Origin: Candidatus Omnitrophota bacterium
GTDB lineage: Bacteria > Omnitrophota > Gorgyraeia > Gygaellales > Profunditerraquicolaceae
Length of the DNA: 64,000 nucleotides
Assembly (NCBI GenBank): GCA_028716245.1
Contig: JAQUQW010000002.1
Location: 72,947-136,946, forward strand
Direction of reading: 5' to 3'
How positions within the stretch are numbered: position 1 is the stretch's first letter; each line of letters begins with the position of its first letter. Of this stretch, positions 666 through 55,943 are shown piece by piece. The position numbers and the translations under genes were made by a program. Under the pieces are notes generated by a model, which searched no databases, was not told the DNA's origin, and worked only from the letters and a program-made list of their open reading frames with translations.

Positions 666-700
666 TTGACAATGACAATATATTGTGGTAAAAAATTAAC
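666..700 (+). promoter_or_regulatory. candidate sigma70-type promoter (TTGACA, 17 nt, TAAAAA) upstream of the ATP-grasp/KamA cluster
   Basis: TTGACA at 666-671 followed 17 nt later by TAAAAA. It lies in a 295-nt intergenic leader. Confidence 0.25.
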
Positions 701-906
701 ATAGACACAATATTTTGCATAAATTTTTGGAGGTTGATAAACTAAGTTGGAAAAAATTGGATAGATTCCTAAAGGGCTTGCGGCATAAGTAATTTAAACC
801 GGGCCCTTTTTTTATAATGCGGGGTTAAATTATCAAGGATTTCATTAAAAAATTACGGCAAGAAAGTTAAATCCGCGGATTAATGGCGGTAAAATGAGAT
901 AAAATT

Positions 907-1896
907 ATGAAAACTGTGGGATTAACCTACGATTTAAAAACCGATTATAAATTCAAAGAAGGGGATCCGCTGGACGCCAATGCGGAATTTGATGCTCCTT
1001 CGACAATCAATGTTATTGCCGAGGCTATTGTCGCCAACGGCTTTAAAGTAAAGAAAATAGGCAATGCCAATAATCTGTTGGAAAAAATTGATAATCTGGG
1101 AGTGGATATTGTTTTTAATATCTCCGAAGGCCTAACCGGCAGGAATCGCGAGTCCCAGGTGCCGATTTTACTGGAAATGGCCGGTATTCCTTTTGTCGGA
1201 GCCGATGCCTTGACTTTAGGCTTGACTTTGGATAAGGTTATGGCTAAAAAAATTTTTATCGCTGAAAAAATCCCCACTCCTAAGTTTTTTGAAGTAAGCT
1301 CGGCGGAGGCCTTAATTAATCAGGATCATTGCCGGTTCCCATTGATTGTTAAACCGCGCTTTGAGGGTTCCTCAAAAGGCTTGAGTGAAAGTTCTCGCGT
1401 AGAAAGTACCGATGAACTTAAAAAGCAGGTGGATTTTATTACTAAAACCTACAAACAGCCGGCTTTAGTTGAGGAGTTTATCTCGGGGCAGGAGTTTACC
1501 GTGGCTATCGTCGGTAACGAAAACCCCGAAGTTATGCCGGTAGTCCAGATAAAGATAGACGGAAAATTAAAATTAAATGACAAATTTTATACTTTCGCGC
1601 GGATCACTTCCGACAGGTTAGAGTATATTTGCCCGGCAAAAATAACCAATGATTTAAAGAATAAACTGGACGATCTGGCTTTAAAGGTTTATCGCAGTGT
1701 TGAGTGCCGGGATTTTGGCAGGGTGGATTTTAGGGTTGATAATGACGGCAACCCTTATGTGCTGGAGATAAATCCGCTGCCTTCTTTATCTACCGAAGAT
1801 GTTTTTATGCTCATTGCCAAAAATATCGGCATTACTTATGACCAGATGGTCGGCAAGATTTTAAACAGCGCCATTGCGCGCAACGGGTTAAACTAG
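907..1896 (+). CDS. ATP-grasp ligase, D-alanine--D-alanine ligase family (paralog 1)
   Basis: 329 aa with Ddl-like N-terminal and ATP-grasp regions (LIVKP..EGSSKG.., EEFISGQEFTVAIVGNE). It abuts paralog 2 with no gap. Confidence 0.75.
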   Translation: MKTVGLTYDLKTDYKFKEGDPLDANAEFDAPSTINVIAEAIVANGFKVKKIGNANNLLEKIDNLGVDIVFNISEGLTGRNRESQVPILLEMAGIPFVGADALTLGLTLDKVMAKKIFIAEKIPTPKFFEVSSAEALINQDHCRFPLIVKPRFEGSSKGLSESSRVESTDELKKQVDFITKTYKQPALVEEFISGQEFTVAIVGNENPEVMPVVQIKIDGKLKLNDKFYTFARITSDRLEYICPAKITNDLKNKLDDLALKVYRSVECRDFGRVDFRVDNDGNPYVLEINPLPSLSTEDVFMLIAKNIGITYDQMVGKILNSAIARNGLN

Positions 1897-2895
1897 ATGA
1901 AAGTTGCCTTGACCTATAATTTAAAAAAGAAGGATCCGCAAAAGCCGGCGGATTATTTCTCCGAATGCGATTCGCAAGAGACGATTAATTCCGTGGTTTG
2001 TGCCCTCAAAACCAAGGGCCATTCCGTCGAGGCAATCGACGTGGAGTATCCGGCCTTATTTTCATATTTTCGGAAAAACCGCGTCGATATGGTCTTTAAT
2101 ATCGCTGAAGGAAAGCACGGCAGATTTCGTGAATCCGAAGTGCCGGCAGTGCTGGATTATTTAAACATACCTTATACCGGTTCGGACACCTTCTCTTTAG
2201 CCCTGGCCTTAAATAAGGGGCTGACTAAAAAAATATTACAGGCGGAGAATATCCCCACTCCCAATTTTCAGCTTTTCGTGAAAGGGGATGAACCGCTGGA
2301 TGCGCAGCTGCGGTTTCCATTAATTGTCAAGCCTAATTGCGAAGGATCGGCAAAAGGGATAAACAAGACCAATGTAGTTGAGAATAAAGAAGATCTTTTT
2401 AAGAAGGTTAGGGAATCTATAGATGTGTATCAGCAGGAAGCCCTGGTTGAAGAATTTATCGAAGGCAAAGAGTTGACCGTGGGGATCTTAGAAAACGGAA
2501 AAACCCACGTGCTTCCGATTTTAGAGATCGATTTTTCCAACTGTAAAAAAAGCGGAGAATATTTTTATTCCTGGAAGATGAAAGAGTTCCAAGGCAATAG
2601 CGAATTGGGGTTGGTGCCTGAATTCCATTGCCCGGCCAGGCTGGATAAAGAGGTAGAGGCCAAGGTAAAAGATGTGGCTTTGCGCACGCACCGGGCCGTA
2701 GGCTGTTTGGATATTTCCCGCACCGATATCCGTTTGGATAAATTTAATGTGCCGTATGTCTTGGAGATTAACCCTTTACCGGGGTTAGACCCCAAAGAAT
2801 CCAATTTTCCGCTAATGGCATATGCCGCAGGGATGAAGTATGAGGATCTTATTGAGGCAATACTAATGAGTGCCTCAGAAAGGAAAAAGGCTTAA
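1897..2895 (+). CDS. ATP-grasp ligase, D-alanine--D-alanine ligase family (paralog 2)
   Basis: 332 aa with the same architecture as the upstream paralog (LIVKPNCEGSAKG, EEFIEGKELTVGILENG). Confidence 0.75.
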   Translation: MKVALTYNLKKKDPQKPADYFSECDSQETINSVVCALKTKGHSVEAIDVEYPALFSYFRKNRVDMVFNIAEGKHGRFRESEVPAVLDYLNIPYTGSDTFSLALALNKGLTKKILQAENIPTPNFQLFVKGDEPLDAQLRFPLIVKPNCEGSAKGINKTNVVENKEDLFKKVRESIDVYQQEALVEEFIEGKELTVGILENGKTHVLPILEIDFSNCKKSGEYFYSWKMKEFQGNSELGLVPEFHCPARLDKEVEAKVKDVALRTHRAVGCLDISRTDIRLDKFNVPYVLEINPLPGLDPKESNFPLMAYAAGMKYEDLIEAILMSASERKKA

Positions 2896-4084
2896 ATTGA
2901 ATAACCCCGAAGGTTTAGAAAACCAAAAAGGACAGGTTGAAACGCCGGTTATGCCGCGGCCTCCAAGGCGTTGGCGCGATTATCAGCAAATTCCCCTTTT
3001 TAAAGATGTTAACCCGCTGGATTGGGAAGATTGGCATTGGCAGCTCAAACACAGGATCCGCACCAAGGAAGAATTAGCCCAGATTATTAAGCTTACTCCC
3101 CAGGAGGAAAAAGGAATTGATAAAGCCAAAGGCAGGTTGGCCATGGCCATTACCCCTTATTGGGCAAGCCTGATTGATATTGAAGATCCGGATTGCCCCA
3201 TCCGCAGGCAGTCTGTGCCGGTCGGCGATGAATTCTCGATTTCCCCGCACGAAATGGCTGATCCTTGCGCCGAGGACCGCGATTCTCCGGCGCCGCATTT
3301 GGTGCACCGCTATCCGGACAGGGTCCTGTTGTTGGCTACGGAGCATTGCGCGATGTATTGCCGGCATTGTACCCGCCGCAGGCTCGTGGGTGATCATGAA
3401 GAAAAAGAAACAAACCCTGAAACTAAATTTGACGCGGCCATAGAGTATATCAAAGCTAACCGTAAGATAAGGGATGTGTTGATTTCCGGCGGGGATCCGC
3501 TTACCTTAGAGGATGAGGCATTGGAATCCCTGATTGCCAAGATCCGCGACATATCGCATGTTGAATTATTAAGGATCGGTACGCGTATTCCGGCAACTTT
3601 ACCGCAGCGCGTTACTGAAAATCTGGTAAACATGATCAAGAAATATTCTCCGATCTGGATGAGCATTCATTTTAATCATCCCAAGGAGATCACCAAGCGC
3701 TGTAAGAATGCCTGCGATATGCTTTCTGAAAGCGGCATACCTTTAGGCAGCCAGTCGGTGCTTCTTAAGGGCATCAACGACCGGCCATTCATTATGAAGC
3801 GCCTGATGCATGACCTTCTGCAAATGAGAGTAAGGCCGTATTATATTTACCAGTGCGATCCGGTAAGGGGCACGCAGCATTTTCGCACCCCGGTAGCCGT
3901 GGGGATAAATATTATCGAGAAATTACGCGGGCACACTTCCGGTTATGCCGTTCCGACCTATGTTATCGACGGGCCCGGCGGCGGCGGAAAGATCCCTGTG
4001 GGGCCGAATTATATTCTTTCCCAGGCCAAGGGTAAATATGTGTTGCGTAATTATAAGGGTAAGATCTATACCTACCTGGAATAA
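2870..4084 (+). CDS. lysine 2,3-aminomutase family radical SAM protein (KamA/EpmB family)
   Basis: CAMYCRHCTRRR CxxxCxxC motif, LFKDVNPLDWEDWHWQLKHRI N-terminal signature and a KamA-like C-terminal tail. The ORF track uses a GTG start at 2870. An in-frame ATG at 2951 is a more likely start. Confidence 0.85.
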   Translation: MPQKGKRLKLNNPEGLENQKGQVETPVMPRPPRRWRDYQQIPLFKDVNPLDWEDWHWQLKHRIRTKEELAQIIKLTPQEEKGIDKAKGRLAMAITPYWASLIDIEDPDCPIRRQSVPVGDEFSISPHEMADPCAEDRDSPAPHLVHRYPDRVLLLATEHCAMYCRHCTRRRLVGDHEEKETNPETKFDAAIEYIKANRKIRDVLISGGDPLTLEDEALESLIAKIRDISHVELLRIGTRIPATLPQRVTENLVNMIKKYSPIWMSIHFNHPKEITKRCKNACDMLSESGIPLGSQSVLLKGINDRPFIMKRLMHDLLQMRVRPYYIYQCDPVRGTQHFRTPVAVGINIIEKLRGHTSGYAVPTYVIDGPGGGGKIPVGPNYILSQAKGKYVLRNYKGKIYTYLE

Positions 4085-4094
4085 TCTTTAAAAT

Positions 4095-4153
4095 AAAGGG
4101 ACAGTTTCTATTTTTCTTTTGTTTAATTTGATTGAAAAATAGAAACGGTCCCT
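4095..4153. repeat. family-3 long inverted repeat (AAAGGGAC[A/C]GTTTCTATTTTT arm, loop, reverse complement)
   Basis: Left arm at 4095-4115 and right arm at 4135-4153 match in 17 of 19 positions as reverse complements. It lies directly after the KamA stop and overlaps the annotated start of the next ORF. Confidence 0.8.
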
Positions 4154-4863
4154 GGATTCCTATGAAAATAAGCGCTTTTGCCATACCCGAAGTTGTTTTG
4201 GGAAAACATAACGTTAAAAACGATAAACTGGACCAGGCGGATAAACTGGTTAAGGCCAAGAAAAAAACTTATCCTCAGGTAGAGTTGGCCGGCGAGGACG
4301 CGGCAGCCGAAGCAGACGCTATAATTATTCCCAAAGACGCCAAGATGGATTTAATTCTTCGCGATTTGGATTTTGTGGAAACCCGCCTGAGTAAATCTCC
4401 GGAAGAAAAAGAAAAAATTATATTGAATAAAATGAAGGCAGCCCTGGAGAAAGAGGAGCTTATTTCCGGAATCGGATTAACCAATCAGGAAAAAGAAGTT
4501 ATCTCAGGGTATGGCTTGCTTACGCTTAAGCCGGTGGTGGTGATAAATAAAGAAGAACTGGAGAATTTGGGTGTTTTGTTGGCCAGGGTATTGGCAGAGA
4601 GCGGTTTTATAAGTTTTCTCACTGTCGGCGATAAAGAAAATCGCGCCTGGTTAATTAAGCAAGGCACTACTGCCTGGGAGGCAGCCGGAGTAATCCATTC
4701 CGATATCCAGCAGGGTTTTATCCGCGCTGAAATCATAAGTTTCGCCGATTTTATTGCCTGCGGCGGAGAAACCGGAGCCAAGCAGGCGGGTAAAATGCGG
4801 CTTGAGCAAAAAGAATACGTTATGCAGGACGCCGATTTAGTTAATTTCCGGTTCAACAAATAA
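4132..4863 (+). CDS. YchF-like protein consisting only of the helical and TGS (C-terminal) domains, with no GTPase G domain
   Basis: C-terminus ENRAWLIKQGTTAWEAAGVIHSDIQQGFIRAEIISFADFIACGGETGAKQAGKMRLEQKEYVMQDADLVNFRFN aligns to the YchF TGS domain. No P-loop or G1-G4 motifs are present. The likely real start is the ATG at 4162 (MKISAF). The first ~10 annotated codons are the right arm of the family-3 repeat. Confidence 0.65.
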   Translation: MKNRNGPWIPMKISAFAIPEVVLGKHNVKNDKLDQADKLVKAKKKTYPQVELAGEDAAAEADAIIIPKDAKMDLILRDLDFVETRLSKSPEEKEKIILNKMKAALEKEELISGIGLTNQEKEVISGYGLLTLKPVVVINKEELENLGVLLARVLAESGFISFLTVGDKENRAWLIKQGTTAWEAAGVIHSDIQQGFIRAEIISFADFIACGGETGAKQAGKMRLEQKEYVMQDADLVNFRFNK

Positions 4864-11311: not shown

Positions 11312-11788
11312 CTAAAGTAAAAATTTATTCAAAAGCCCGTAATTATTACCAAGATTTCTTTCCGTGTAACTGCAAAAAGTATAATCTTTGGGGCTGTTTA
11401 CTAATTTTGCCCTTACAGGGTTTGTTTCGATATAGGAAATACAGTCTAGCACATACCGATTTTTAACAATCAATTTCGCTTTAAATTTACCCTGCCAAAG
11501 ATGGCCAACCTTGTTGTATTTTTTATTATAATAAGCAGTATAGGAACGTTGCAGGCATTGCATAAAATTAGATAATTTTTCCGGCACGACCGGTTGCCCC
11601 ATCAAATGGACATGATTAGGCATTAAGCAGTAACCATATAGATGGAAAGAATACTTCATTTTGTAATGTTTTAGTTGTCCAAGGTAGAACCCGAAGTCAC
11701 TTTTTTCAATAAAAACTATTTGTTTCTGATTTCCTCTTGCATAAATATGATAACAGGCGTTTTCGATTAATATTCTTGTTTTTGTCAT
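11312..11788 (-). CDS. IS200-like Y1 (HUH) transposase, RAYT-like (copy 2)
   Basis: 158 aa with HUH motif (PNHVHLM), conserved YHIYARG N-terminus and the Tyr-containing C-terminal helix region (YIETNPVRAKLV). It has family-2 repeats on both sides. Confidence 0.8.
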   Translation of the reverse strand: MTKTRILIENACYHIYARGNQKQIVFIEKSDFGFYLGQLKHYKMKYSFHLYGYCLMPNHVHLMGQPVVPEKLSNFMQCLQRSYTAYYNKKYNKVGHLWQGKFKAKLIVKNRYVLDCISYIETNPVRAKLVNSPKDYTFCSYTERNLGNNYGLLNKFLL

Positions 11789-11800
11789 TTCTCCTCCTTA

Positions 11801-11847
11801 GCCCCCGTTTCCCGATTGGGTCGGAAACAGTTTCGGGTTTTGGGTTT
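11801..11847. repeat. family-2 repeat unit (CCCGATTGGG + GGAAACAGTTTCG modules)
   Basis: GCCCCCGTTTCCCGATTGGGTCGGAAACAGTTTCGGG is an inverted copy of the element at 11272-11311. Confidence 0.7.
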
Positions 11848-13375
11848 AATTTAGTAGTTTATCCAGGCTTCGGTATTGCACTGCCTCCGCAACATGCTCG
11901 GCGCAAATTATTTCCTCTTGGTTTAAATCCGCAATCGTCCGGGCAACTTTCAGTATTTTATCATAAGCCCTGGCGGAGAACCCTAATTCGGACATCGCCA
12001 TCCGTATCAACTTTTGCGCGTTCTCATCCAGAAGACAATGTTCCTTGATTAATTTACTCTGCATTTGGGCATTGCAAAATATTCCCGTTGATTTAAATCT
12101 TTCCCGTTGAATGGCGCGCGCATTTTCCACGCGCTGCCTGATTGCTTGCGAGGTTTCCGTGTTTTTTATCTCGGATAATTCCCGGTATTTTACCTGCGGA
12201 ACTTCAATATGTATATCAATCCGGTCAAGCAGGGGGCCGGAAATCTTGCCTAAATAATTCCTGATTTTTGTGGTATTGCAATGGCAGGTTTTCTGCGGGC
12301 TAAAATAATTCCCGCAGGGGCAAGGGTTAAGGGCTGCGGCCAAAATAAAATTAGCCGGAAAAACCAAAGTCCCTTTTAAGCGGCTGACGCAAATTAAATT
12401 ATCTTCCAGCGGTTGCCTCAATGCTTCCAAGGCCTTACGGCTGAACTCCGGTAATTCATCCAGAAATAAAACTCCATGATGAGACAGGCTTATTTCTCCC
12501 GGCTTAGGAATGCTGCCTCCGCCAATTAATGCGATATCTGAAATACTGTGGTGGGGAAAGCGGAAAGGCCGGGTTCCGATAAAACCATCCTTGTTTAACA
12601 ATGCCTTTGCTACTGAATGGATCCGGGTTATTTCCAGGGCTTCTTGTAAGCTGAGGCTGGGCATAATGGTGGGGATTCTTTTGGCAAGCATAGTTTTACC
12701 GCTGCCCGGCGGCCCCAGCAAAACAATATTGTGCCCGCCTGAGACAGCTACCTCAATAGCTCGCTTAGCAAAATATTGGCCTTTGACTTCGGAAAAATCC
12801 AGGCTGTAATTCGCGTTTGTCTTAAGGATTTCTTCGGGAGCCAGTTTAAATGGCTGCCTGAGGCCGGGGTCGGCTAAGAATTGCACGACTTCTTTTAAAG
12901 TTCTTAAAGGCCAGGCAGATATTTCCGGTATAATCCCGGCTTCTTTGGCATTTTCTTCGGGAAGTATAAGGTTCTTCAGCGGTAATTTTGCCATGGTTAA
13001 ACTTATTGCCAGGACTCCGTGAACTGGCCGTAGCTGCCCGTCCAGAGATAGCTCTCCCAGAAAAGAGTAATTTTTAATAAGATCCTCATTAATTTGTTTG
13101 GTTGCCGCCAGAATGCCTAAAGCAATGGCTAAGTCAAAGCATGCCCCCTCTTTTTTGATGTTGGAAGGGGCCAGGTTCACGGTTATTCTCTCCGCGGGCC
13201 ACTGGAAACCCGAATTTTTGATTGCCGAGCGCACCCTCTCTTTGCTTTCTTTTATCGCCGTGTCGGCTAAACCGACCAAGGTAACTACCGGAAGCCCCCT
13301 GGCAACATCGATTTCTATTTCAACCGGGTAGGCTTCCAGGCCCAAGAGGCCAAAGCTGTAAATTTTTGAGATCAT
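11846..13375 (-). CDS. comM: Mg-chelatase-like AAA+ ATPase ComM/YifB
   Basis: 509 aa with N-terminal Lon-like S5 fold domain, Walker A GPPGSGKT and a C-terminal ChlI/YifB region. Confidence 0.88.
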   Translation of the reverse strand: MISKIYSFGLLGLEAYPVEIEIDVARGLPVVTLVGLADTAIKESKERVRSAIKNSGFQWPAERITVNLAPSNIKKEGACFDLAIALGILAATKQINEDLIKNYSFLGELSLDGQLRPVHGVLAISLTMAKLPLKNLILPEENAKEAGIIPEISAWPLRTLKEVVQFLADPGLRQPFKLAPEEILKTNANYSLDFSEVKGQYFAKRAIEVAVSGGHNIVLLGPPGSGKTMLAKRIPTIMPSLSLQEALEITRIHSVAKALLNKDGFIGTRPFRFPHHSISDIALIGGGSIPKPGEISLSHHGVLFLDELPEFSRKALEALRQPLEDNLICVSRLKGTLVFPANFILAAALNPCPCGNYFSPQKTCHCNTTKIRNYLGKISGPLLDRIDIHIEVPQVKYRELSEIKNTETSQAIRQRVENARAIQRERFKSTGIFCNAQMQSKLIKEHCLLDENAQKLIRMAMSELGFSARAYDKILKVARTIADLNQEEIICAEHVAEAVQYRSLDKLLN

Positions 13376-18166: not shown

Positions 18167-18819
18167 TGATCGACAAGCAAACTTCTGACGAGAGGTTACT
18201 TAAACTTATTGAGGGCACCGGGGAACCTAAACACCCGGGAGCTATGTCCGTCGGGGCAAGAAGGCTGGCCGCCCATCCCCTGGCCGTTAAACTTAATTTT
18301 CTTGAACTAAAATCGAAGCTTAAAGACTTAAAGGTTAATTTACTCGTTTTAAATAAAGGCTTGATTGGTTTGGCAGTTTTCCTAACGTTTATGTTTTTGT
18401 ATATCCTTATCAGCGGTTCAATAATTTCTAAATCCAACTCTATTTCTTTTACCCCCAGGGATAGCTCGGCAATAATAAAATTAATATCCGCCGGAGAGGC
18501 TCAAGGGTTGATGCGCAAAAACATCGCCAATCAGAATATCACCAGGGATTTTTTTCTTCCCTTTGGCGAAAAACGCAGTGTTCCTGTGCAGGAGGAGGGC
18601 CCGGATATAACCGAAGAGGTCAAGGCCCTGAAACTTGTCGGCATTATCTGGTCGCGTAATCCTGAAGTGATGATTGAAAATTCCAAAGACTCTCGGACAT
18701 ATACTTTAAAAAAAGGCGAATCGCTTGGCGATAAGTTCAAGATTAAAGAGATTTCACGGACTTCGGCTATTTTGGTGGTAACCACCCCGGCCGGCTTAAA
18801 GGAATATGAGTTAAGATGA
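18166..18819 (+). CDS. single-pass membrane protein with C-terminal beta domain, GspC/PilP-like secretin partner (putative)
   Basis: One TM segment (LIGLAVFLTFMFLYILI) and a C-terminal TYTLKKGESLGDKFKIKEISRTSAILV resembling the HR domain of GspC/PilP. It lies between the GspA-like gene and the secretin. Confidence 0.4.
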   Translation: MIDKQTSDERLLKLIEGTGEPKHPGAMSVGARRLAAHPLAVKLNFLELKSKLKDLKVNLLVLNKGLIGLAVFLTFMFLYILISGSIISKSNSISFTPRDSSAIIKLISAGEAQGLMRKNIANQNITRDFFLPFGEKRSVPVQEEGPDITEEVKALKLVGIIWSRNPEVMIENSKDSRTYTLKKGESLGDKFKIKEISRTSAILVVTTPAGLKEYELR

Positions 18820-20327
18820 AGTTAGAAAAGCTTATTTTATGCGCGGTTTTTATTTTGTCCTTTGCAGGATTGGTTTTGGCCGAAGATATTATCGTTGAAG
18901 CTGCTAAAGCGTCTGAGCCGTCAGCAACATTTACCGATAAAGTTTCTTTGGATTTAAAGGGGGTTGATATTAACGAACTTTTTAAATTACTTTCCGCGAA
19001 AACCGGGATAACGATTATTCCGTCTCCGCAGGTCAGCGGGAGGATCACGGTATTTATGAATGATTTAAGCTTTTCCGATGCGCTGGATGTAATTGTTACC
19101 ATGCAGGATTTGGCTTATGAAAGAAAGGCAAATGTAGTCAAGGTAATGACTTTGGCAGAATATGAAAAGGCCTACGGAAAGAAATTCGGAGAGCGCAAGG
19201 AAACCCGCACCTTTAAGCTTGCTTATGCTAAGCCGGCAAACGTGCTCAATGTGATCAATTCCCTGAAATCCGAGCTGGGCAAGATTATTTCCGATGATTC
19301 AACCGGCACCGTCATTATTATAGATACTCCGCAATCCATGGAAGTTATGGCTAATACGATAAAAGAGCTTGACCGGCCCCTGGAGACGCTGGTCTTTGAT
19401 GTCAACTACGCGCGTTTTACCGATATAAAAAATTACCTTAATGAACTGATTACTCCGGGAGTCGGGCAGATAATCGTGGATGAAAGAAGCAGCAAGGTGG
19501 TTGTTTATGACCTGCCGCAGCGCTTAAACCGGATAAAGAAACTTATGCGGGAGTTTGACGAACAATCGCGCCAGGTGCTGATTACCGGCGAAATTATTGA
19601 AGTTACGATCGATGATAAATTCCAAAGCGGTATTGCCTGGGATAAGATTTTTAACCAAGCGGACCTGCATAACCTGGAGTTGGTGGGGAATTTTCCCATA
19701 AGCCCGGCGCTTTCCAATTATGGAAAGATCAGCTTAGGCACATTAGCCCAGGACCATTATAATATAGTAATGAATATGCTTAGTACTTACGGCTCTACGA
19801 AAGTGCTTACCCGGCCAAGGATTGTTGTGGTCAATAAGGAGGAAGCTAAAATACTTGTCGGTACGCGCGAGGCTTATGTAACCTCGACCCAAAGCCAGGG
19901 ACAATCCACGACCCTTACCGCGGAAAGCGTGCAGTTTATCGATGTTGGGTTAAAACTTGCGGTTGTGCCGACCATTGGCGCCGATGGTTTTATTACAATG
20001 AAGATAAAACCTGAAGTCAGTTCAGTGCAGAGCACATTAACCACAACTGCCGGCACGGTTGTGCCGATAGTGGAAACCTCGCAATCCGAGACAGTGGTTA
20101 AAGTAAAAGACGGCAATATGCTGATTATCGCCGGACTGCTTAGAGAAGAAAATGACAAAAGTGATTCAGGGTTGCCTGGCTTATCGCGCCTGCGCATCTT
20201 GGGCCATTTATTTTCTACGAGGGGAAGGGAAAAGAAAAGAAAAGAGTTGGTTATATTTATAACTCCTACAATAATAACCGGAACAAACAATATCAGCCGT
20301 GAGGTAAAGAGTGAAAGCAAACAATAA
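18816..20327 (+). CDS. gspD: secretin (GspD/PilQ family), paralog 1
   Basis: Signal peptide, N0/STN-like domain (LKGVDINELFKLLSAKTGITIIP), and a secretin C-domain (VLTRPRIVVVNKEEAKILVG...ITPTII). Confidence 0.85.
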   Translation: MKLEKLILCAVFILSFAGLVLAEDIIVEAAKASEPSATFTDKVSLDLKGVDINELFKLLSAKTGITIIPSPQVSGRITVFMNDLSFSDALDVIVTMQDLAYERKANVVKVMTLAEYEKAYGKKFGERKETRTFKLAYAKPANVLNVINSLKSELGKIISDDSTGTVIIIDTPQSMEVMANTIKELDRPLETLVFDVNYARFTDIKNYLNELITPGVGQIIVDERSSKVVVYDLPQRLNRIKKLMREFDEQSRQVLITGEIIEVTIDDKFQSGIAWDKIFNQADLHNLELVGNFPISPALSNYGKISLGTLAQDHYNIVMNMLSTYGSTKVLTRPRIVVVNKEEAKILVGTREAYVTSTQSQGQSTTLTAESVQFIDVGLKLAVVPTIGADGFITMKIKPEVSSVQSTLTTTAGTVVPIVETSQSETVVKVKDGNMLIIAGLLREENDKSDSGLPGLSRLRILGHLFSTRGREKKRKELVIFITPTIITGTNNISREVKSESKQ

Positions 20328-22524
20328 ACTCATAAATAGGGACAGCGACCATTTTTTCAAAAACCTTTGGATTCGTAAAAAATGGTCGCTGTCCCTATTT
20401 ATCCTGCTATCTTTAATCAGCCCGCTTGGCGCAAAAAGCGATTCCGCGCAGGAAGATCAGATAGTTGAAGAGAGTCCGAAGGATAAGATATCCTTGGACC
20501 TGAAAAATGTGGATATTGTTGAGTTATTGCGGATTGTCTCGCTTAAAACCGGAAGGACAATCGTTCCCAGCAAGGATGTTTCCGGCCGCATCACCATCTA
20601 TTTAAGCCAGGTTGCCTTTGATGACGTCCTGGATATTATCCTGCTTACTCAAGGGTTGGCCCTAAACAAAAAAGATAACGTGTATTATGTGATGAGTGAA
20701 GCCGAATACAAAAAAATGTATGGCCGGGATTATATTGACCAGAGAAAAATTGAAACAGTCAAGCTTTCCTACGCCAAGCCTTCCATAATTTTTAACGCGC
20801 TCGGCCAGCTTAAATCCGATGTCGGTAAAATCGTAGTTGATGAAGCCAGCGGCACGATAATCCTGATCGATATCCCGGAAAAGCTGGAACTGCTTCAAAA
20901 AACAATCAAAGAATTAGACCAGCCGTTGACTACCGCTATCTATGACCTTAATTACATTAAGCCTGCCGATGCCAAAACCCAGCTTAACGCCGCCATTACT
21001 CCGGGTACAGGCGAGGTAATTATCGATGAAAGAAACGGCAAGGCCATAATTTCGGACCTGCCCAGAAAAATAGATAAGTTAGGGATGCTGGTGCGTGAGA
21101 TAGACGAGGAATCCCGCCAGGTTTATATTGAAGCCGATATCGTCGAGCTTACTTTGGATAATCAATTCCAAAGGGGGATAGACTGGGAAAAGCTATGGAG
21201 TTCTGCGGCAATGAATGGATTGGATTTTTCCGGGAATTTTCCTTTAGCCGCTTTAACGGCAGTGGGGGCAATAACTCAGAAAATCTCAGTGGGTACCTTT
21301 GCCACCAATCATTACCAGGCGATCCTGAATTTTCTAAATACCTACGGAACTACGCATGTTGTTTCCCAGCCGAGGATTGCCGTAGTCAATAACGAAGAAG
21401 CCAATATTATGGTCGGTACGCGCGAGGCGTATATTACTCAGACGCAAAGCCAGGCAACCGCGACCACCGTAACTTCTGAAACCGTAGAGTTTATCGATGT
21501 TGGTGTTAAATTAAAAGTTGTACCTAAAATCAGCGCCGATGATTTTATTACGATGAAGATAAAACCTGAAGTCAGTTCTGTTACCAGGACGCTTACTACT
21601 TCTCTGGGTAGCGTTGTTCCAATAGTGCAAACTTCTCAGTCAGAAAGTGTCGTAAAAATAAAAGACGGGATGATGATTATGATCGCCGGAATGACTAAAG
21701 TTGAGAAGACCGACACAATCAACGGCTGGCCGGTATTGTCAAAAATCCCTTTCTTAGGAGTATTGTTTAGCAATCGCGTGAAGGATACCAAGAGGACCGA
21801 AGTAATTATTTTTCTTACCCCGCACCTGTCGCGCGGCGACGCGGGGTTAAGAGGGGATGAGATAACTAAAATATTGCCGATGGAGAATTTACCGGAGCGC
21901 TTGCAAAACAAGGTAGTCAGGGATAAAGCAATAGATAAGGGGCTATTTACTCCTGAAAAGATGAAGGAAGAATTGGCCAAGAAGCAGGCAATAGAGGTAG
22001 CTGCCGAAGAAACAGCCGAAAGGACCGCCGCAGACAAATTGGCAAAGGCGGCAGAAAAGGCAGAAAAGGCAGCGGTCAAACAAACAGTTGCCGCCGAAGT
22101 AAAGAAATCCAGCCCAAGAGAAGCCGCCAAAGAATATTACCAAAAAGGCCTGCGCGCGCAGGCGGATTCCGATAATGAAGAAGCAATCCGTAATTTTATA
22201 AGAGCCGCGCAGTTGGATAAAAAATACGCCGCCGCTTACAATAGTTTAGGGATTATTTATGAGCAGGAGAGTAAGCCCGAGAAATCCGAGGAGATGTATC
22301 TAAAGGCCGTTTCAGCTGACGAGCGTTATTGCCCGGCCTATTCAAATTTAGCTTTATTTAATGAAAATCGCAAAGATTTTACCAAAGCTTTAGAGTATTG
22401 GCGCAAACGCGTTTTATACGGCGATCAAAATAGCGAATGGACAAAAAAGGCTATACAGCGGATAAAAGAACTTGAGAGCAACAAAGGCGAAACTGTTTCC
22501 GATTCAATCGGGACAGGGGGGTAG
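20311..22524 (+). CDS. gspD: secretin (GspD/PilQ family), paralog 2, with C-terminal TPR extension
   Basis: N0-like domain (LKNVDIVELLRIVSLKTGRTIVP), secretin C-domain (VVSQPRIAVVNNEEANIMVG), then a Lys/Ala/Glu-rich linker and TPR repeats (AIRNFIRAAQLDKKYAAAYNSLGIIY...). Its ATG overlaps the paralog-1 stop by 17 nt. Confidence 0.85.
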   Translation: MKANNKLINRDSDHFFKNLWIRKKWSLSLFILLSLISPLGAKSDSAQEDQIVEESPKDKISLDLKNVDIVELLRIVSLKTGRTIVPSKDVSGRITIYLSQVAFDDVLDIILLTQGLALNKKDNVYYVMSEAEYKKMYGRDYIDQRKIETVKLSYAKPSIIFNALGQLKSDVGKIVVDEASGTIILIDIPEKLELLQKTIKELDQPLTTAIYDLNYIKPADAKTQLNAAITPGTGEVIIDERNGKAIISDLPRKIDKLGMLVREIDEESRQVYIEADIVELTLDNQFQRGIDWEKLWSSAAMNGLDFSGNFPLAALTAVGAITQKISVGTFATNHYQAILNFLNTYGTTHVVSQPRIAVVNNEEANIMVGTREAYITQTQSQATATTVTSETVEFIDVGVKLKVVPKISADDFITMKIKPEVSSVTRTLTTSLGSVVPIVQTSQSESVVKIKDGMMIMIAGMTKVEKTDTINGWPVLSKIPFLGVLFSNRVKDTKRTEVIIFLTPHLSRGDAGLRGDEITKILPMENLPERLQNKVVRDKAIDKGLFTPEKMKEELAKKQAIEVAAEETAERTAADKLAKAAEKAEKAAVKQTVAAEVKKSSPREAAKEYYQKGLRAQADSDNEEAIRNFIRAAQLDKKYAAAYNSLGIIYEQESKPEKSEEMYLKAVSADERYCPAYSNLALFNENRKDFTKALEYWRKRVLYGDQNSEWTKKAIQRIKELESNKGETVSDSIGTGG
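20334..20402. repeat. REPIN-like element B (family 1), 69 nt, lying in frame inside the 5' end of secretin paralog 2
   Basis: Arms are at 20334-20358 and 20378-20402. It is translated as INRDSDHFFKNLWIRKKWSLSLF within the predicted signal peptide. Confidence 0.85.
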
Positions 22525-26979: not shown

Positions 26980-29900
26980 ATGAGTAATCGGCAGAAAGCA
27001 AAAATAGCTACGCGGGTAATCCTGGTGATGCTCTTTACAGCCGCCTTCGGGATGTTCTTGTCTTACCTATATCATCACTCCATCGAAGCGGTAGAGACAA
27101 ACTCTGTTGTCATAAGTAACCCTACCGCCACCACGGCAAATGCCAGCCAGAGGAAATTAGCGCGCGCCACCAACGGAGATTTATACGCGGTTTATGCCCG
27201 TCTTGACGGGGCAAACCAGCAGATTTATTATGCCAAGTCCACGGATAACGGCGCAACCTGGATAGAACAGGGCAAGGCCCACGCCGATGTAGCGGCTGAG
27301 CAGAAAGAACCGGCAATCGCCATCGATTCTTCGGATAATCTTTACATTGCCTGGGCCGGCAAGGGCTGGGGAACCAACACCGCTAATTTTAATATTAAAT
27401 ACCGTAAATATAATAAAGCAACCGCGTTATGGGATACACAGGAATCCGTGACCGACGCTGCGTATGACCAATTCGCGCCGGCGTTAGCTTTGGACTCAAG
27501 CAATAACATTCATGTTGCCTGGTATGGCAAAGGCTGGGGAACCAACACCGCCAACAATAATATTCAATATCGCAAAAGGACAACCTCCTGGCAAACACAG
27601 GAATCCGTGACCGACGCTGCGTATGACCAATTCGCGCCGGCGTTAGCTTTGGACTCAAGCAATAACATTCATGTTGCCTGGTATGGCAAGGGCTGGGGAA
27701 CCAACACCGCCAACAATAATATTCAATATCGCAAAAAGACAGCCTCCTGGCAAAAACAGGAATCCGTAACCGACGCTGCTTACGATCAACTTTCGCCATC
27801 GCTTGCCCTGGACTCAGCAGATTACGTTTACGCGGTTTGGGCCGGCAAAGGCTGGGGAACCAACACCACTATTGATAACATTGAATATTCAAAACGCGCC
27901 ACTCTCAGCACTGACTGGGCAGCCAACCGTGAGTCAGTTACTGACAGCGCAAGCGCGCAACTTTCGCCATCGCTTGCCCTGGACTCAGCAGATTACGTTT
28001 ACGCGGTTTGGGCAGGCAAAGGCTGGGGAACCAACACCGCCAACAATAATATTCAATATCGCAAAAGGACAACCGCCTGGCAGGGGCAATCAGGAATTAC
28101 GGATTTGGCGTCAGACCAAACCAATCCCACGCTTTTTTGGCATCCACAGCCAACCATATTCACCAGCGTAAAAACAAACATTATTACCTCAGGCCACAGT
28201 TTTATCTGGACTACCGGTTCAGGAGTTAAATTCTACGCCAGCGACGGAATTATCTTCCCTAAGGTTTATTTTGTTTTGAGCCCGGCGAATTCCACGCCTA
28301 CTGTCGGCTCAAGCACGGATGTAACGATTACCGCCGCCAAAAAAGACGCGGCTAACGCCGATGTTACCGTAACCGATTATAATGTGGCAACCACAGTAAG
28401 TGTAAGCGCCGACGGGGCGGCTAAATTTACCGCGCCGAGTTCCGGAAACCCGATTTCTCTTCGGGATATTGATTGGAAAAGCGGCGCAGCCAGCGTAACG
28501 ATTACCGATGATACCGCCCAAAGCGTTACCGTTAAGGCGGCAGACCAGAATAATGCTTCGATCACCGGAACAACCTCAGTTTCCTTCCAGCCGACAGCGG
28601 CAGATAAATTACTCCTTAATCACCCCGCGGCTATTGATGCCGGCACCCGCGCCGCGTATATAGTAACCCTGGCGGATGCCCGTAACAATAACGTAAATGC
28701 CGGCTCAGGCGGACAGGTAATTTATCTGTTTACAACTTCCGCAAGCGCCAACGCGAAATTTTACAACGCGGCCTCCGGCGGCAAGGCGATTACCAGCGTA
28801 ACTATTCCCAGCGGCAGTTCTCTGGCGAGCGCCTGGTATTACGACGATACTGCCGGCACTTATACCATAACCGCTTCAGATGCTTCCCCTGCAAACGGCG
28901 CAATTGGGCTGGCTGACGCGCAGGATACAATCAAAGTTAACCCCGCAGCCGACCTGAGCAAAAAATATAAGATTAAATTTGACAATGATGAAGCGGAAAT
29001 CGGCGATTTCCGGGCCAAGGACTTCAAACCTCACGTAAAAATGAAACGCTGGGGCGAAGAATGTTACTTTAGCATCGAGTTTCCCGAGAGCAAAATACCC
29101 GCCAAGGATAAATCCGTAGGCGTAGAGGCAGACAAGATAAAATGGAAGTCACCGGATTCAGAGGCGCATTTTTACAAGAAGGGGAGCAAGCAAATCAGCG
29201 CCAAGGATAATAAAGGAAAAAGCCGCGGCTTTTTGAAGAATGAATCCGGCGCTTTGGAGTTTGAAGTGGTTTTGGATAAGAAACCGGCCTCCAATATAAT
29301 CAGCTTACCCATAGAAACCAAGGGCCTTAAATTCTATTATCAGGGGCCGTTAACTGCCGAAGAAATAAAGCAGGGAATAGTCCGGCCGGATGAGGTGGTG
29401 GGGTCTTACGCGGTGTATCATGAAAGTAAAAATGACGGCGCATATAACACCGGCAAGGCCTTCCATATTTACCGGCCAAAGGTCATCGATGCCACGGGGA
29501 ATACGATTTGGGGCCAGCTGGACATCGACGCAGTAAAAGGCGCCTTAACCATCACTATTGACCAGTCCTGGCTAAATAGCGCGGCTTATCCGGTAACCAT
29601 TGACCCTGAATTTGGTTATATGTCGATAGGTTCAAGCTCTATCCCTTTGAACAATATAACCCGCGGTTCAAAATTTACCGCCCTCGTAATGACGCCGGCT
29701 ACAATCGGAGCTTATTTGGGAAATACCGATGCCACTGCTTCTCACACCGCCAAGTTCGCTATTTATAAGGCGAGCGATTCATCCCTTGCAGGCCAGACCC
29801 AGGAAGTAACTATTCCCGCCTCATCTACAGGCTGGTATACGGGCGTCTATATTGTTGGCCCAAGCTTAACCGCCGTAGATTACGCCTTAGTGGCCAAAGC

Positions 29901-44412: not shown

Positions 44413-45084
44413 ATGCCTAGAATTGCCAGAGTTGTAGCGATAGGTCAACCTCACCACATTACACAAAGAGGTAACTATCGGCAAGACGTATTCCTTAACG
44501 CGGATAACCGAAAACAATACCTTGCCTGGATTAATGAATATAGCGTAAAATACGGGGTTCTCGTTTTGGCCCATTGCCTGATGGCAAATCATGTTCACTT
44601 TATCGCTATTCCTAATGAAAGCGATTCGCTGGCTAAAACATTCAATACCGCTCATATGCGTTATTCCCAGTATTTTAATAAAAAGTTGAAGCAGAGCGGG
44701 CATCTTTGGCAGGGACGTTTTTATTCTTGTGTGTTGGATCAATCTCATCTTATACTTGCCGCTCGTTATATTGAAAGGAATCCTGTGCGCGCAGGACGCG
44801 TAGAGAAACCTTGGCAGTGGCCATGGTCAAGCGCCGCCGCCCATACGAATAGGAAGGATAATAAATCGATTGAGTTTGGGGATCTTCTCGGGATTATCGG
44901 CATGTCAAGCACCGCGTGGGAAAAATACATTGATTCCGCGGAAGAGGACAATTTTTTACAGGATATAAGAAAGCATACGTATGCCGGTCGTCCCCTCGGG
45001 GCGCCGGAATTTACTATAGGTTTAGAGGAAAAATGTGGTAGAAGGTTATGCGCGTTACCGATAGGGAGGCCAAGAAAAAGCTAG
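44413..45084 (+). CDS. REP-associated tyrosine transposase (RAYT; IS200-like Y1 HUH transposase), copy 1
   Basis: 223 aa with HUH motif (ANHVHFIAI) and a conserved C-terminal Tyr-helix region (YIERNPVRAGRV). Inverted family-1 REP arms lie 97 nt upstream and directly after the stop. Confidence 0.85.
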   Translation: MPRIARVVAIGQPHHITQRGNYRQDVFLNADNRKQYLAWINEYSVKYGVLVLAHCLMANHVHFIAIPNESDSLAKTFNTAHMRYSQYFNKKLKQSGHLWQGRFYSCVLDQSHLILAARYIERNPVRAGRVEKPWQWPWSSAAAHTNRKDNKSIEFGDLLGIIGMSSTAWEKYIDSAEEDNFLQDIRKHTYAGRPLGAPEFTIGLEEKCGRRLCALPIGRPRKS

Positions 45085-49623: not shown

Positions 49624-51021
<1,398 letters not shown>

Positions 51022-51023
51022 AT

Positions 51024-52643: not shown

Positions 52644-52644
52644 A

Positions 52645-53883: not shown

Positions 53884-53884
53884 T

Positions 53885-53950
53885 AAATAGGGACAGCGAC
53901 CATTTTTTGTTCGCTATCCCTATTAAAAAAATGGTCGCTGTCCCTATTTA
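53885..53950. repeat. REPIN-like element J (family 1) directly after the gspF stop
   Basis: Arms are at 53885-53908 and 53925-53950. The spacer contains a partial extra arm copy (TCGCTATCCCTATT). Confidence 0.85.
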
Positions 53951-53961
53951 TTAAGATAATT

Positions 53962-55865: not shown

Positions 55866-55866
55866 A

Positions 55867-55921
55867 CCCCATTTCCCCTTCAGGTCCGAAACAGTTTCGA
55901 TTCTAAAGAGGAAATGGGGCC
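55867..55921. repeat. family-2 repeat: 10-bp stem CCCCATTTCC/GGAAATGGGG enclosing the palindrome CGAAACAGTTTCG
   Basis: Perfect inverted repeat at 55867-55876 and 55912-55921, with the palindromic core at 55888-55900. It lies between the pilO-like and gspG genes. Confidence 0.8.
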
Positions 55922-55943
55922 ATAAAGCTATAAGGAGATTATC

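Follow-up and report, generated by a model that had tools for sequence, protein, structure and literature searches.

To our knowledge, beta-lysine has few known fates, in that it can be acetylated to give an osmolyte, attached to EF-P, fermented, or built by non-ribosomal synthetases into a handful of antibiotics. The AblA/AblB pathway produces N-epsilon-acetyl-beta-lysine, an osmolyte, in methanogens and in some bacteria, while beta-lysylation of EF-P by EpmA and EpmB is the one well-established macromolecular use of this amino acid. Beta-lysine oligomers occur in streptothricins. Among ATP-grasp enzymes, RimK, LysX and the tubulin-tyrosine ligases modify proteins, cyanophycin synthetase makes polymers, and the GNAT-ATP-grasp enzyme Ngg makes the osmolyte NAGGN. 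For the L-amino acid ligases we know of no link to beta-amino acids or to KamA. The product of Ngg, said to have been described by Sagot and colleagues in 2010, is reportedly the dipeptide N-acetylglutaminylglutamine amide.

The window, a 64-kb stretch of DNA from an Omnitrophota genome, carries two Ddl-like ATP-grasp genes (AG1 and AG2) followed by a gene of the KamA family. These genes and the elements upstream of them are as follows.

666-696, plus strand: promoter-like element, read from the sequence, with a putative function
729-764, plus strand: conserved leader segment, with GGAGG at 729-733, a 13-nt gap, and TTG GAA AAA ATT GGA TAG at 747-764
771-813, plus strand: GC-rich hairpin followed by 7 consecutive T, resembling an intrinsic terminator; putative attenuator lying between promoter and AG1
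907-1896, plus strand: AG1, predicted Ddl-like ATP-grasp amide ligase of the KamA-linked 'A-type' family, ATG start, 329 aa
1897-2895, plus strand: AG2, second predicted Ddl-like ATP-grasp ligase, ATG start, 332 aa
2870-4084, plus strand: predicted KamA/AblA-type L-lysine 2,3-aminomutase (radical SAM and PLP), GTG start, 404 aa

In the ORF listing of the window, AG1, AG2 and kamA are three co-directional ORFs. The stop codon of AG1 abuts the start of AG2 with zero gap (...TAG ATG...), and the ORFs of AG2 and kamA overlap by 26 nt. An alternative ATG of kamA is located at 2951; the residues encoded upstream of it are conserved in related genomes (KLNNPxSLENQKxQIETP). Since this N-terminal extension is conserved at the protein level, the GTG start and the overlap with AG2 are probably real. 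Such gene packing fits coupled translation. A sequence-only reading of this DNA had described two abutting or overlapping Ddl-like paralogues next to a KamA-family gene, and the ORFs along with domain matches far beyond chance bear this out.

The upstream neighbour of AG1 is a HAD hydrolase gene, and the downstream neighbour of kamA is a YchF-like gene (both by Pfam). The Pfam scan covered the window ORFs of at least 150 aa, minus a 5207-aa ORF and 11846-13375. No acetyltransferase, mur/ddl or fts gene was found among the ORFs scanned, and tblastn over all 64 kb of the window detected nothing efp-like; that neither an acetyltransferase nor efp is nearby had been stated from the sequence alone. 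The module carries no gene for a transporter, a carrier protein or a precursor peptide.

The KamA protein was ~62% identical to the crystallised Clostridium lysine 2,3-aminomutase (LAM) and matched PDB 2A5H with E=1e-144. The only curated model that it passed was TIGR03820 (AblA, lysine 2,3-aminomutase; E=1e-158), and the pass was narrow (528.1 bits vs the cutoff of 525.4), with model positions 361-417 left uncovered. The protein also matched Pfam Radical_SAM (E=2e-12) and has the CxxxCxxC motif for the [4Fe-4S] cluster and SAM (equivalents of C125, C129 and C132). The alignment to 2A5H showed that the PLP lysine K337 (in a GGGGK motif) and the carboxylate-binding R134 are kept. The ligands of the epsilon-ammonium group, D293 and D330, are both Asp in the window KamA and in all the Omnitrophota orthologues examined; in glutamate 2,3-aminomutase these two residues are replaced.

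Three other assignments were tried and rejected. Glutamate 2,3-aminomutase, which the sequence-only reading had named as the outcome that would tell against it, failed both by score (TIGR04368, 468.5 bits vs the cutoff of 650) and by the Asp residues at both the D293 and D330 positions. The score of the EpmB model TIGR03821 was 251.9 bits compared to the cutoff of 369.3, and KamA failed the arginine model as well.

We observed that KamA has no C-terminal zinc domain; it ends at the equivalent of LAM residue 367 and has R, not C, at position 268. The inter-subunit zinc site of the Clostridium enzyme is, as we take it, made of C268 and C375/C377/C380, and EpmB likewise has no C-terminal zinc domain. 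The domain is a trait of the clostridial enzyme and not a catalytic requirement. Judged by homology and by conserved residues, the window KamA is a predicted lysine 2,3-aminomutase of a short form.

The ligases AG1 and AG2 are paralogues (41% identity) and both matched Pfam Dala_Dala_lig_C (E=1e-39 and E=6e-37, respectively). All top PDB matches of the AlphaFold model of AG1 (pLDDT 89.7) were Ddl enzymes, with TM of 0.75-0.80 and 23-26% identity, while the L-amino acid ligase BL00235 (PDB 3VOT) was a weak match of the AG proteins (E=1e-4 to 1e-7). Still, both proteins scored below every Ddl and Van cutoff. For example, the best Ddl model, NF002378, gave 190.5 bits for AG1 and 203.1 bits for AG2 vs the cutoff of 243; for TIGR01205 the scores were 164 and 167 bits vs 245.65.

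In an alignment with E. coli DdlB, for which a manually entered sequence served as the reference, AG1 and AG2 both keep the counterparts of the residues for ATP, Mg and catalysis (K97, K144, E180, R255, D257, E270 and N272). The D-Ala site, as aligned, is changed in AG1 (H63->E, K215->I, Y216->T, S281->D, L282->V) and in AG2 (H63->E, Y216->E, L282->N). The same kind of comparison gave H63->E and E68->R throughout the family, as well as altered omega-loop and S281/L282 positions. Three motifs mark the family, AEFD on the N-terminal side, NIAEGxxGRxRES and LEINPLP, and their columns are invariant in A1 and A3; pairwise scores inside the family are 150-390 bits compared to 90-145 bits to DdlB. 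Both proteins are compact and Ddl-sized and have no extra protein-recognition domain. Sequence comparison places AG1 and AG2 in a KamA-linked Ddl-like ATP-grasp family, delimited here, with predicted catalytic residues intact, which is not ordinary Ddl. The possibility, raised in the sequence-only reading, that they are simply peptidoglycan Ddl is countered by the sub-cutoff scores, by the D-Ala-site changes and by repeated adjacency or fusion to KamA.

Across 80 Omnitrophota species AG1 was 57-96% identical. The sequence-only reading had proposed a search for co-occurrence of the three-gene arrangement, and the outcome was strongly positive: AG1 and kamA were present in the same order in all the Omnitrophota loci with enough sequence (64/64), and AG2 in 59 of the 64 complete loci. 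Median identities in these loci were 73-79% for the trio vs 68% for purH. The samples of origin were labelled groundwater, lake and marine in the record titles. The trio is surrounded by a housekeeping array (ychF-like, purH, folC, mnmE), often along with an EF-G-like gene, which is missing from the window and from its nearest relatives.

For more distant relatives, only ~40% identical, 21 metagenome loci were well flanked, and kamA was present in 17 of these. Gene fusions were found in several forms: AG-KamA (the P0198 family, at least 11 clusters), KamA-AG (P0244), AG-GNAT (L092), and AG-AG, a single polypeptide with two AG domains seen in dozens of 50%-identity cluster representatives. Another lineage (L086) has KamA, AG-AG and AG, while the order AG-AG-GNAT-KamA was seen in L091 and in cultured Desulfuromonadales (Desulfuromonas versatilis, L173). 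When neighbour ORFs of related loci were clustered, only GNAT and S58 peptidase recurred as partners, and neither a transporter nor a peptide substrate appeared; a targeted neighbour search added an HDAC-type deacetylase. The GNATs of modules in other lineages are small and match RimI-type models only. One related module adjoins Na+/H+ exchangers.

Some AG-AG fusions lack KamA and adjoin S58 peptidases, therefore not every member of the family needs beta-lysine. In P0198-type fusions, the KamA half has Q at D293, so its substrate may differ. The linkage of KamA and AG is functional, not accidental, and it is hard to dismiss because of the gene fusions. We found no paper in the literature that describes the AG1-AG2-KamA module, and the three genes apparently represent a widespread, unstudied pathway.

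The region upstream of AG1 showed conservation of its own. A putative -35 hexamer TTGACA (666-671) is followed by a 17-nt spacer and by TGG-TAAAAA (686-694), with a 12-nt palindrome ACAATATATTGT inside the spacer (675-686). The element TTGACA-N17-TGnGATAAAAAAT is kept upstream of AG1 in ~50 Omnitrophota loci. In the leader, TTG GAA AAA ATT GGA TAG is a possible 5-codon mini-ORF (putative MEKIG). Among relatives, the distance from GGAGG to TTG varied from 11 to 17 nt (12-14 nt in 28/31 loci), and the distance from TTG to the hairpin from 21 to 27 nt (23-27 nt in 29 of 30 scored loci). A leader ORF of 3-7 codons was present in 26 of 31 scored loci, and its third codon was most commonly AAA (20/31 loci). 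A search of the leader against Rfam gave no match.

The hairpin at 771-813 had a minimum free energy of -13.5 kcal/mol, and the terminator hairpin was the sole consensus structure predicted by RNAalifold from 40 aligned leaders. Since the stem is conserved in sequence, it shows little covariation. The T-run stops just 8-16 nt ahead of the AG1 ATG in many of the related loci, so that transcription must read through it to get to AG1. Promoter, leader and terminator, all conserved, would together gate expression of the module.

The reading that we favour, and hold to be probable to a modest degree, is that the trio ligates beta-lysine, in an ATP-dependent manner, into a small soluble peptide or amide. 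KamA would convert L-lysine to beta-lysine (3,6-diaminohexanoate), as its very close homology to known enzymes and its conserved active-site residues suggest. AG1 and AG2 would then use ATP to form amide bonds via an acyl-phosphate intermediate and join beta-lysine to one or two partners, either another amino acid or another beta-lysine. The two ligases probably pair up as a heterodimer or act one after the other; AG1 and KamA would make the minimal core, to which AG2 would add a second ligation. The product would most likely be a cytoplasmic small beta-lysine peptide or amide that resembles a compatible solute or a polyamine. Hints of a small molecule are the absence of transporter, carrier-protein and precursor-peptide genes from the module, the few recurrent neighbours (GNAT, S58 peptidase, HDAC-type deacetylase), the Na+/H+ exchangers beside one related module, and the osmolyte precedents of AblA/AblB and Ngg.

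As a counterpoint to an osmolyte, a beta-lysine peptide would be cationic unless its partner is acidic, because the Omnitrophota version of the module has no acetyltransferase; such a charge is unusual for a compatible solute. The near-universal and highly conserved presence of the trio in a housekeeping array agrees more with a core role in the cell than with adaptation to salt. A bolder version, to which we give only a small chance, is that the product is an undescribed beta-lysine molecule, a core constituent of this whole phylum of ultra-small bacteria, under a new lysine-related leader or attenuator. Two options can be named for such a constituent: an oligo-beta-lysine or beta-lysyl peptide, made by ATP-grasp enzymes, that serves as the main organic polycation, or a beta-lysyl mark placed by ATP-grasp enzymes on a translation factor.

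An unlikely alternative is that AG1 and AG2 link beta-lysine units to one another (epsilon-amino to carboxyl) to give oligo- or poly-beta-lysine. As a polycation, such a homopolymer might stand in for polyamines, serve as counter-ion to nucleic acids or have antimicrobial action. The family-wide acidic change H63->E in the first-substrate site, next to the conserved equivalent of E15, and S281->D in the acceptor site of AG1 would fit, at both sites, a substrate bearing two amino groups, though this view of the pocket comes from alignment. The trio has no linked gene for any second amino acid that might serve as substrate, and both the beta-lysine oligomers of streptothricins and the polymers of cyanophycin synthetase are precedents. 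On the other hand, genes for a primer, export or immunity are absent, and a pair of distinct ligases (a single one in the minimal form) is as compatible with defined ligations as with polymerisation. The GNAT and deacetylase neighbours in relatives suggest a small N-acetylated end product instead.

Attachment of beta-lysine to a protein is, in our view, clearly improbable. The target might be the conserved EF-P lysine, with AG1 and AG2 in place of EpmA, or a different translation factor, such as the EF-G-like or YchF-like one encoded just downstream. The precedent of EF-P, the protein-modifying ATP-grasp enzymes, and the RimI-like GNATs of related modules all agree with this explanation. The YchF-like gene follows the Omnitrophota trio, an EF-G-like GTPase gene is present in most loci, and the very high conservation of the trio suits a housekeeping role. 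However, neither the window nor any of 92 related loci (1.17 Mb total) gave an efp match in tblastn, which leaves the earlier idea of an EpmA replacement without support. The aminomutase is of LAM/AblA type and fails the EpmB model, the Ddl-sized ligases have no added domain for protein recognition, and the closest structural relatives of AG1 are all small-molecule enzymes. The window and its nearest relatives have no EF-G-like gene. Moreover, the module is also present in Desulfuromonadales, and an earlier comparative study (PMC2821294) reported that yjeK and efp form a separate cluster in Desulfuromonas acetoxidans.

We find it very unlikely that AG1 and AG2 are divergent peptidoglycan Ddl enzymes or builders of a beta-lysine stem-peptide end or cross-bridge. 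All their top sequence and structure matches are Ddl or Van ligases, public annotation labels their orthologues D-alanine--D-alanine ligase, and an L,D-transpeptidase encoded in the window means that the organism makes peptidoglycan. Against this stand the scores under every Ddl and Van cutoff and the residues altered, by alignment, in the D-Ala site (H63->E, K215/Y216, S281/L282). A mur/fts/ddl context was not seen, with related loci queried only with the window's own neighbours. Synthesis of D-Ala-D-Ala leaves the KamA and GNAT fusions unexplained, and the same AG family is present in Desulfuromonadales, ordinary Gram-negative bacteria in which a normal ddl is expected.

That the genes share nothing but housekeeping synteny, with KamA serving lysine catabolism or making free beta-lysine alone, is hardly credible: the trio does belong to an extended co-directional series of housekeeping genes, unrelated to each other, whose synteny holds across the phylum, but independent KamA/AG fusions exist in both orders, the association recurs in unrelated lineages amid different surrounding genes, and the lysine-fermentation genes kamDE, kdd, kce and kal were unrecognised among the Pfam-annotated neighbours in the few loci with gene tables.

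With beta-lysine ligation to a small product as the favoured reading, the module points to direct ATP-grasp ligation as a fifth route for beta-lysine; this putative route is encoded in all the Omnitrophota loci that were sampled adequately, among cultured Desulfuromonadales and across many lineages known from metagenomes. Routine annotation names these genes D-alanine--D-alanine ligase and lysine 2,3-aminomutase, and what is concluded from such names about the cell wall or osmolytes is therefore probably wrong for them. A beta-lysyl mark on a translation factor, if true, would mean that proteins can be beta-lysylated by a second route, one that does not depend on EpmA. S58 peptidases (DmpA/BapA type) are linked to the sister fusions of AG-AG form, and this link may indicate the natural substrates of those peptidases. 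The module has cultured carriers, among them Desulfuromonas versatilis and Geoalkalibacter, and its enzymes are small and soluble; its product should therefore be identifiable by standard biochemistry.

Compared to known systems, the L-amino acid ligases (BacD/YwfE, TabS, BL00235) are similar in that they are stand-alone ATP-grasp enzymes making free dipeptides; however, they are far more distant from AG than Ddl is. Ngg is a precedent in that an ATP-grasp fused or linked to a GNAT (cf. the AG-GNAT fusion of L092) makes a small N-acetylated peptide osmolyte, but it is set apart, by description, in ATP-grasp subfamily and substrates, and the Omnitrophota module has no GNAT. Ddl and VanA have the same three-domain fold (TM ~0.8) and the same ATP, Mg and catalytic residues, therefore the acyl-phosphate mechanism is presumably the same. 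Still, the identity of AG to Ddl is only 23-30%, the Ddl motifs GGxSxExxVS and HGxxGEDG are replaced by AEFD and EGxxGRxRES, and the AG genes come in two tandem copies in the context of KamA, not of mur/fts.

EpmB/EpmA and the module alike combine an aminomutase of the KamA family with a partner enzyme that would use ATP to activate the carboxylate of beta-lysine. The partner in the module, however, is an ATP-grasp (acyl-phosphate), while EpmA is a LysRS paralogue (adenylate); the module aminomutase fails the EpmB model and has no linkage to efp.

The AblA/AblB pathway has the same first enzyme, given that the window KamA passes the AblA equivalog model, and the modules of Desulfuromonadales and metagenomes carry an acetyltransferase adjoining KamA. 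In Pelobacter carbinolicus such a pair of KamA and acetyltransferase is annotated as ablA/ablB (PMC3543383). The GNAT of related modules, however, is small, RimI-like and unmatched to the AblB model. The window has no acetyltransferase among the ORFs scanned, and the Omnitrophota loci have AG2 or nothing between AG1 and kamA, with flanks made of the window's neighbour set. The module also adds one to three ATP-grasp ligases, which are foreign to AblAB. It is a real, uncharacterised variant of known chemistry.

Three co-directional ORFs, which a sequence-only reading had proposed to be an operon for a beta-lysine peptide or conjugate pathway, were found in the ORF listing at exactly the coordinates noted there:

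907-1896, + strand: AG1, the first Ddl-like ATP-grasp ligase, ORF of 329 aa
1897-2895, + strand: AG2, the second ligase, ORF of 332 aa, with ATG immediately 3' of the AG1 stop codon
2870-4084, + strand: KamA, the radical SAM protein, ORF of 404 aa, with GTG start and a 26-nt overlap with AG2

The Pfam and NCBIfam assignments agreed with the claim of a Ddl-like ATP-grasp pair followed by a KamA-family protein. The D-Ala-D-Ala ligase C-terminal ATP-grasp family was hit by AG1 at E=1e-39 and by AG2 at E=6e-37, and the third ORF matched the KamA family. The KamA gene has an alternative start, the ATG at 2951. Since the segment 5' of this ATG (KLNNPxSLENQKxQIETP) is kept as protein in related genomes, the longer form of KamA, with its overlap with AG2, is likely to be real.

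KamA could be aligned from end to end with the crystallised lysine 2,3-aminomutase (LAM) of Clostridium subterminale (PDB 2A5H, E=1e-144), whose residue numbering is used here. In the alignment, the CxxxCxxC cluster motif, R134 and the PLP lysine K337 were retained, as were D293 and D330, the aspartates that bind the epsilon-ammonium group of the lysine substrate; glutamate 2,3-aminomutase has other residues at these positions. The AblA lysine 2,3-aminomutase equivalog was the sole curated NCBIfam model that KamA passed, and it did so narrowly (528.1 vs 525.4). Identity as a glutamate aminomutase was ruled out by the score (468.5 vs the 650 cutoff) as well as by both aspartates, and identity as an arginine aminomutase by the score (415.3 vs 600); the NCBIfam EpmB model was also below its cutoff (251.9 vs 369.3). 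The earlier placement of KamA with the lysine-type enzymes, and not in the glutamate family, therefore stands. We infer that KamA would convert L-lysine to beta-lysine. The protein is a short form: its C-terminus corresponds to LAM residue 367 and C268 is missing, so that the clostridial inter-subunit zinc site is absent; the short form without C268 was also seen in all the Omnitrophota KamA orthologues examined. In AG-KamA fusions, with an AG-family ligase followed by KamA (P0198 and P0275), the KamA half had Gln for D293 and lacked two residues in the GGGGK loop; because of these changes, its substrate may be other than lysine.

The ligases AG1 and AG2 are paralogues with 41% identity. For the AlphaFold model of AG1 (pLDDT 89.7, pTM 0.89), the nearest solved structures were exclusively Ddl and Van ligases (TM ~0.8, 23-26% identity). 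Alignment of both proteins with E. coli DdlB, to which residue numbers refer, showed that each keeps K97, K144, E180, R255, D257, E270, N272 and the equivalent of E15, the residues for ATP, Mg and catalysis. Throughout the AG family, H63 is replaced by E and E68 by R, the motif NIAEGxxGRxRES stands where Ddl has HGxxGEDG, and AEFD takes the place of the Ddl motif GGxSxExxVS. The alignment also showed the substitutions K215 to I and S281 to D in AG1, and Y216 to E and L282 to N in AG2. Scores of 190.5 bits for AG1 and 203.1 for AG2, vs a cutoff of 243, left both below every curated Ddl/Van cutoff. Since the catalytic residues are kept while these cutoffs are missed and other pocket residues are changed, AG1 and AG2 are predicted to be active amide ligases with a differing substrate pocket, not peptidoglycan Ddl. 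Cutoffs, residues and genomic context together ruled out an ordinary Ddl, in line with the original supposition. Judging from the alignment, the additional acidic residues might accommodate a substrate that carries more than one amino group. No model specific to ligases of this type was present in the curated family libraries, and public annotation names them D-alanine--D-alanine ligase or generic ATP-grasp protein.

Pairwise scores separated an A-type (AG1, AG2, the KamA-fused domains and the first Desulfuromonadales ligase) from a B-type (the GNAT-fused domain and the second Desulfuromonadales ligase). As both AG1 and AG2 score as A-type, the Omnitrophota have two A-type paralogues; the type physically tied to KamA is the A-type.

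The association of ligases and aminomutase proposed for the window recurred in other genomes. The host belongs to the Omnitrophota, and AG1 orthologues (57-96% identity) were found in 80 species-level genomes, all labelled Omnitrophota or Planctomycetales, the latter label evidently being wrong. Of the Omnitrophota loci that extend 2.6 kb or more past AG1, all 64 had KamA in the same order and 59 had AG2; the other five (L058, L060, L061, L066, L073) had AG1-KamA without AG2, and in the shorter loci L059 and L063 KamA directly followed AG1. The median identity to the window proteins was 73% for AG1, 75% for AG2 and 79% for KamA, compared to lower values in the same loci for purH (68%), folC (53%) and mnmE (59%). 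The scan of genome contigs yielded Omnitrophota only, because matches were ordered by how closely they resemble the window protein; the breadth beyond this phylum comes from metagenome loci and the source names of one protein search.

When 1.84 billion representative proteins were searched exhaustively, many two-AG-domain proteins of 600-730 aa were found, along with Pfam-confirmed fusions in both orders, AG then KamA (P0198, of a type seen in at least 11 sequence clusters) and KamA then AG (P0244). Among the loci, L086 had KamA, an AG-AG fusion and a third AG; L091 had AG, AG, GNAT and KamA; and in L092, beside Na+/H+ exchanger genes, a KamA-AG fusion preceded an AG-GNAT fusion. The complete genome of Desulfuromonas versatilis carried AG-AG-GNAT-KamA (L173). 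For the ligase of a Desulfuromonadaceae MAG (L165) used as a query, the closest orthologues included Geoalkalibacter, Pelobacter seleniigenes and other Desulfuromonadales. In a sample of 80 metagenome loci, whose ligases were only ~40% identical to AG1 and AG2, KamA was found in 39; among the 21 loci whose flanks each reached at least 2.5 kb, KamA was found in 17 and GNAT in 11. One metagenome contig (L160) had a KamA-AG-AG module with a further AG copy ~1 kb downstream; it also had two adjacent, unusually long tRNA matches (137 and 168 nt; 3147-3461, - strand), possibly intron-containing tRNA genes.

All-against-all clustering of neighbour ORFs in 89 non-Omnitrophota loci returned only AG, KamA, GNAT and S58 peptidase, besides housekeeping genes of no relation to the module; no transporter, carrier protein or precursor peptide recurred. 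The module-linked GNAT is small and RimI-like, and no AblB model was matched by it. The S58 (DmpA/BapA-family aminopeptidase) genes repeatedly follow AG-AG fusions without KamA (L087, 8001-11116; L090, 7001-10126; L114, L138, L140 and L142), possibly as a synthesis/degradation pair for a peptide. A targeted search revealed a 581-aa protein, GNAT-like and HDAC-type deacetylase, beside the AG-AG-GNAT-KamA modules of Desulfuromonadales type (L173, 5891-7636; also L165, L149, L150 and L105); the HDAC-like deacetylase recurred in such loci only. This protein hints at a cycle of acetylation and deacetylation of the module product.

In Omnitrophota, the module is at the head of a long co-directional syntenic array of a YchF-like gene, purH, folC and mnmE. 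The YchF-like gene lies directly 3' of the module across the phylum (27-91% identity); in the window (4132-4863), only the C-terminal YchF domain of its product is recognisable, the P-loop GTPase domain being missing or degenerate. In most lineages, a gene for a short, 651-aa EF-G-like GTPase stands between KamA and the YchF-like gene (L001, 13232-15187, and ~37 other Omnitrophota loci); it is missing in the window and its closest relatives. The upstream M20 peptidase, PAC2, HAD, AIRS and 245-aa proteins were considered as partners and judged generic Omnitrophota synteny.

The stretch that separates AG1 from the HAD-hydrolase gene upstream contains a conserved control region (666-823) with the following elements:

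from 666, + strand: promoter-like element that looks strong, with TTGACA (666-671), then a 17-nt spacer that includes the palindrome ACAATATATTGT, then TGG-TAAAAA
729-733, + strand: GGAGG of the conserved leader
747-764, + strand: putative mini-ORF, TTG-GAA-AAA..., starting 13 nt after GGAGG
771-813, + strand: GC hairpin and T-run, -13.5 kcal/mol

The region, common to at least 40 Omnitrophota loci, looks like an attenuator in its anatomy, apparently a new one, and the spacer palindrome is a possible operator. The mini-ORF could be read with 3-7 codons in 26 of 31 loci, and its third codon was most often AAA (20/31). The T-run of many related loci stops just 8-16 nt 5' of the AG1 start codon, a gap too short for a second promoter; therefore, AG1 would have to be transcribed by read-through. 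An Rfam search of 560-960 with E up to 10 gave noise only, with no riboswitch family upstream of AG1, and a scan of 25 related loci (288 kb) at gathering thresholds gave tRNAs only. RNAalifold on 40 leaders found no structure beyond the terminator hairpin, for which covariation is unusable because the stem sequence itself is conserved; compared to shuffled sequences, the hairpin alone was not significant (z=-1.0).

Elsewhere in the window we observed a giant ORF of 5207 aa (26980-42603; G+C ~0.50 vs 0.44 around it), two tandem secretin genes (18816-22524), the second with C-terminal TPR repeats, and a type II secretion/type IV pilus cluster (50997-58241) with ATPase, platform protein, PilN-like, pseudopilin and GspK-like genes. 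An ATP synthase gene at 46533-47246, followed by those for alpha, gamma and beta, encodes a 237-aa product that matches the b and delta (OSCP) subunits and is apparently a b-delta fusion. An IS200/Y1-type transposase-like ORF (Pfam Y1_Tnp) lies at 44413-45084 (+ strand); a 158-aa ORF at 11312-11788 (- strand) resembles it by eye.

In the proposed mechanism, KamA would supply beta-lysine, and AG1, an A-type ligase, would form an acyl-phosphate and couple the acyl group to an amine, with beta-lysine as one of the partners. AG2 would carry out a second ligation or form a heterodimer with AG1; the latter idea fits the homodimeric state of Ddl, the frequent AG-AG fusions and the gapless junction of the AG1 and AG2 genes. 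The lack of export, carrier and substrate-peptide genes and the GNAT and deacetylase partners in other lineages suggest that the product is small and soluble. In Omnitrophota, the case against its being purely an osmolyte comes from the lack of an acetyltransferase in their module, which would leave the product cationic unless the partner is acidic, from the sample labels in record titles (groundwater, lake, marine) and from the conservation of the trio at housekeeping level. On these grounds, we moderately favour a beta-lysine-containing small peptide or amide.

Oligo-beta-lysine as the product is unlikely. Beta-lysylation of a protein is somewhat less likely again: for the EF-P route, with the EF-P proteins of E. 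coli and B. subtilis as queries, tblastn found no efp in the window, in line with the sequence-only reading, which saw no EF-P nearby, nor in 92 related loci. The host makes peptidoglycan, since the window encodes an L,D-transpeptidase; a cell-wall role of AG1 and AG2 is less likely still, given the missed Ddl/Van cutoffs, the altered pockets and the absence of a mur/ddl cluster among the Pfam-scanned window ORFs. That the members of the trio have no functional link is very improbable.

The enzymes are all members of well-known superfamilies and the proposed chemistry is conventional, while the combination appears to be new; in the open-access full-text literature we found no paper tying a 2,3-aminomutase or KamA to Ddl-like ATP-grasp ligases. 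The module is widespread and clearly delimited, and since a version of it occurs in cultured Desulfuromonadales, it is open to experiment. As a small peptide or amide, its product may be analogous to N-epsilon-acetyl-beta-lysine, or to NAGGN, a dipeptide osmolyte made by an ATP-grasp enzyme.
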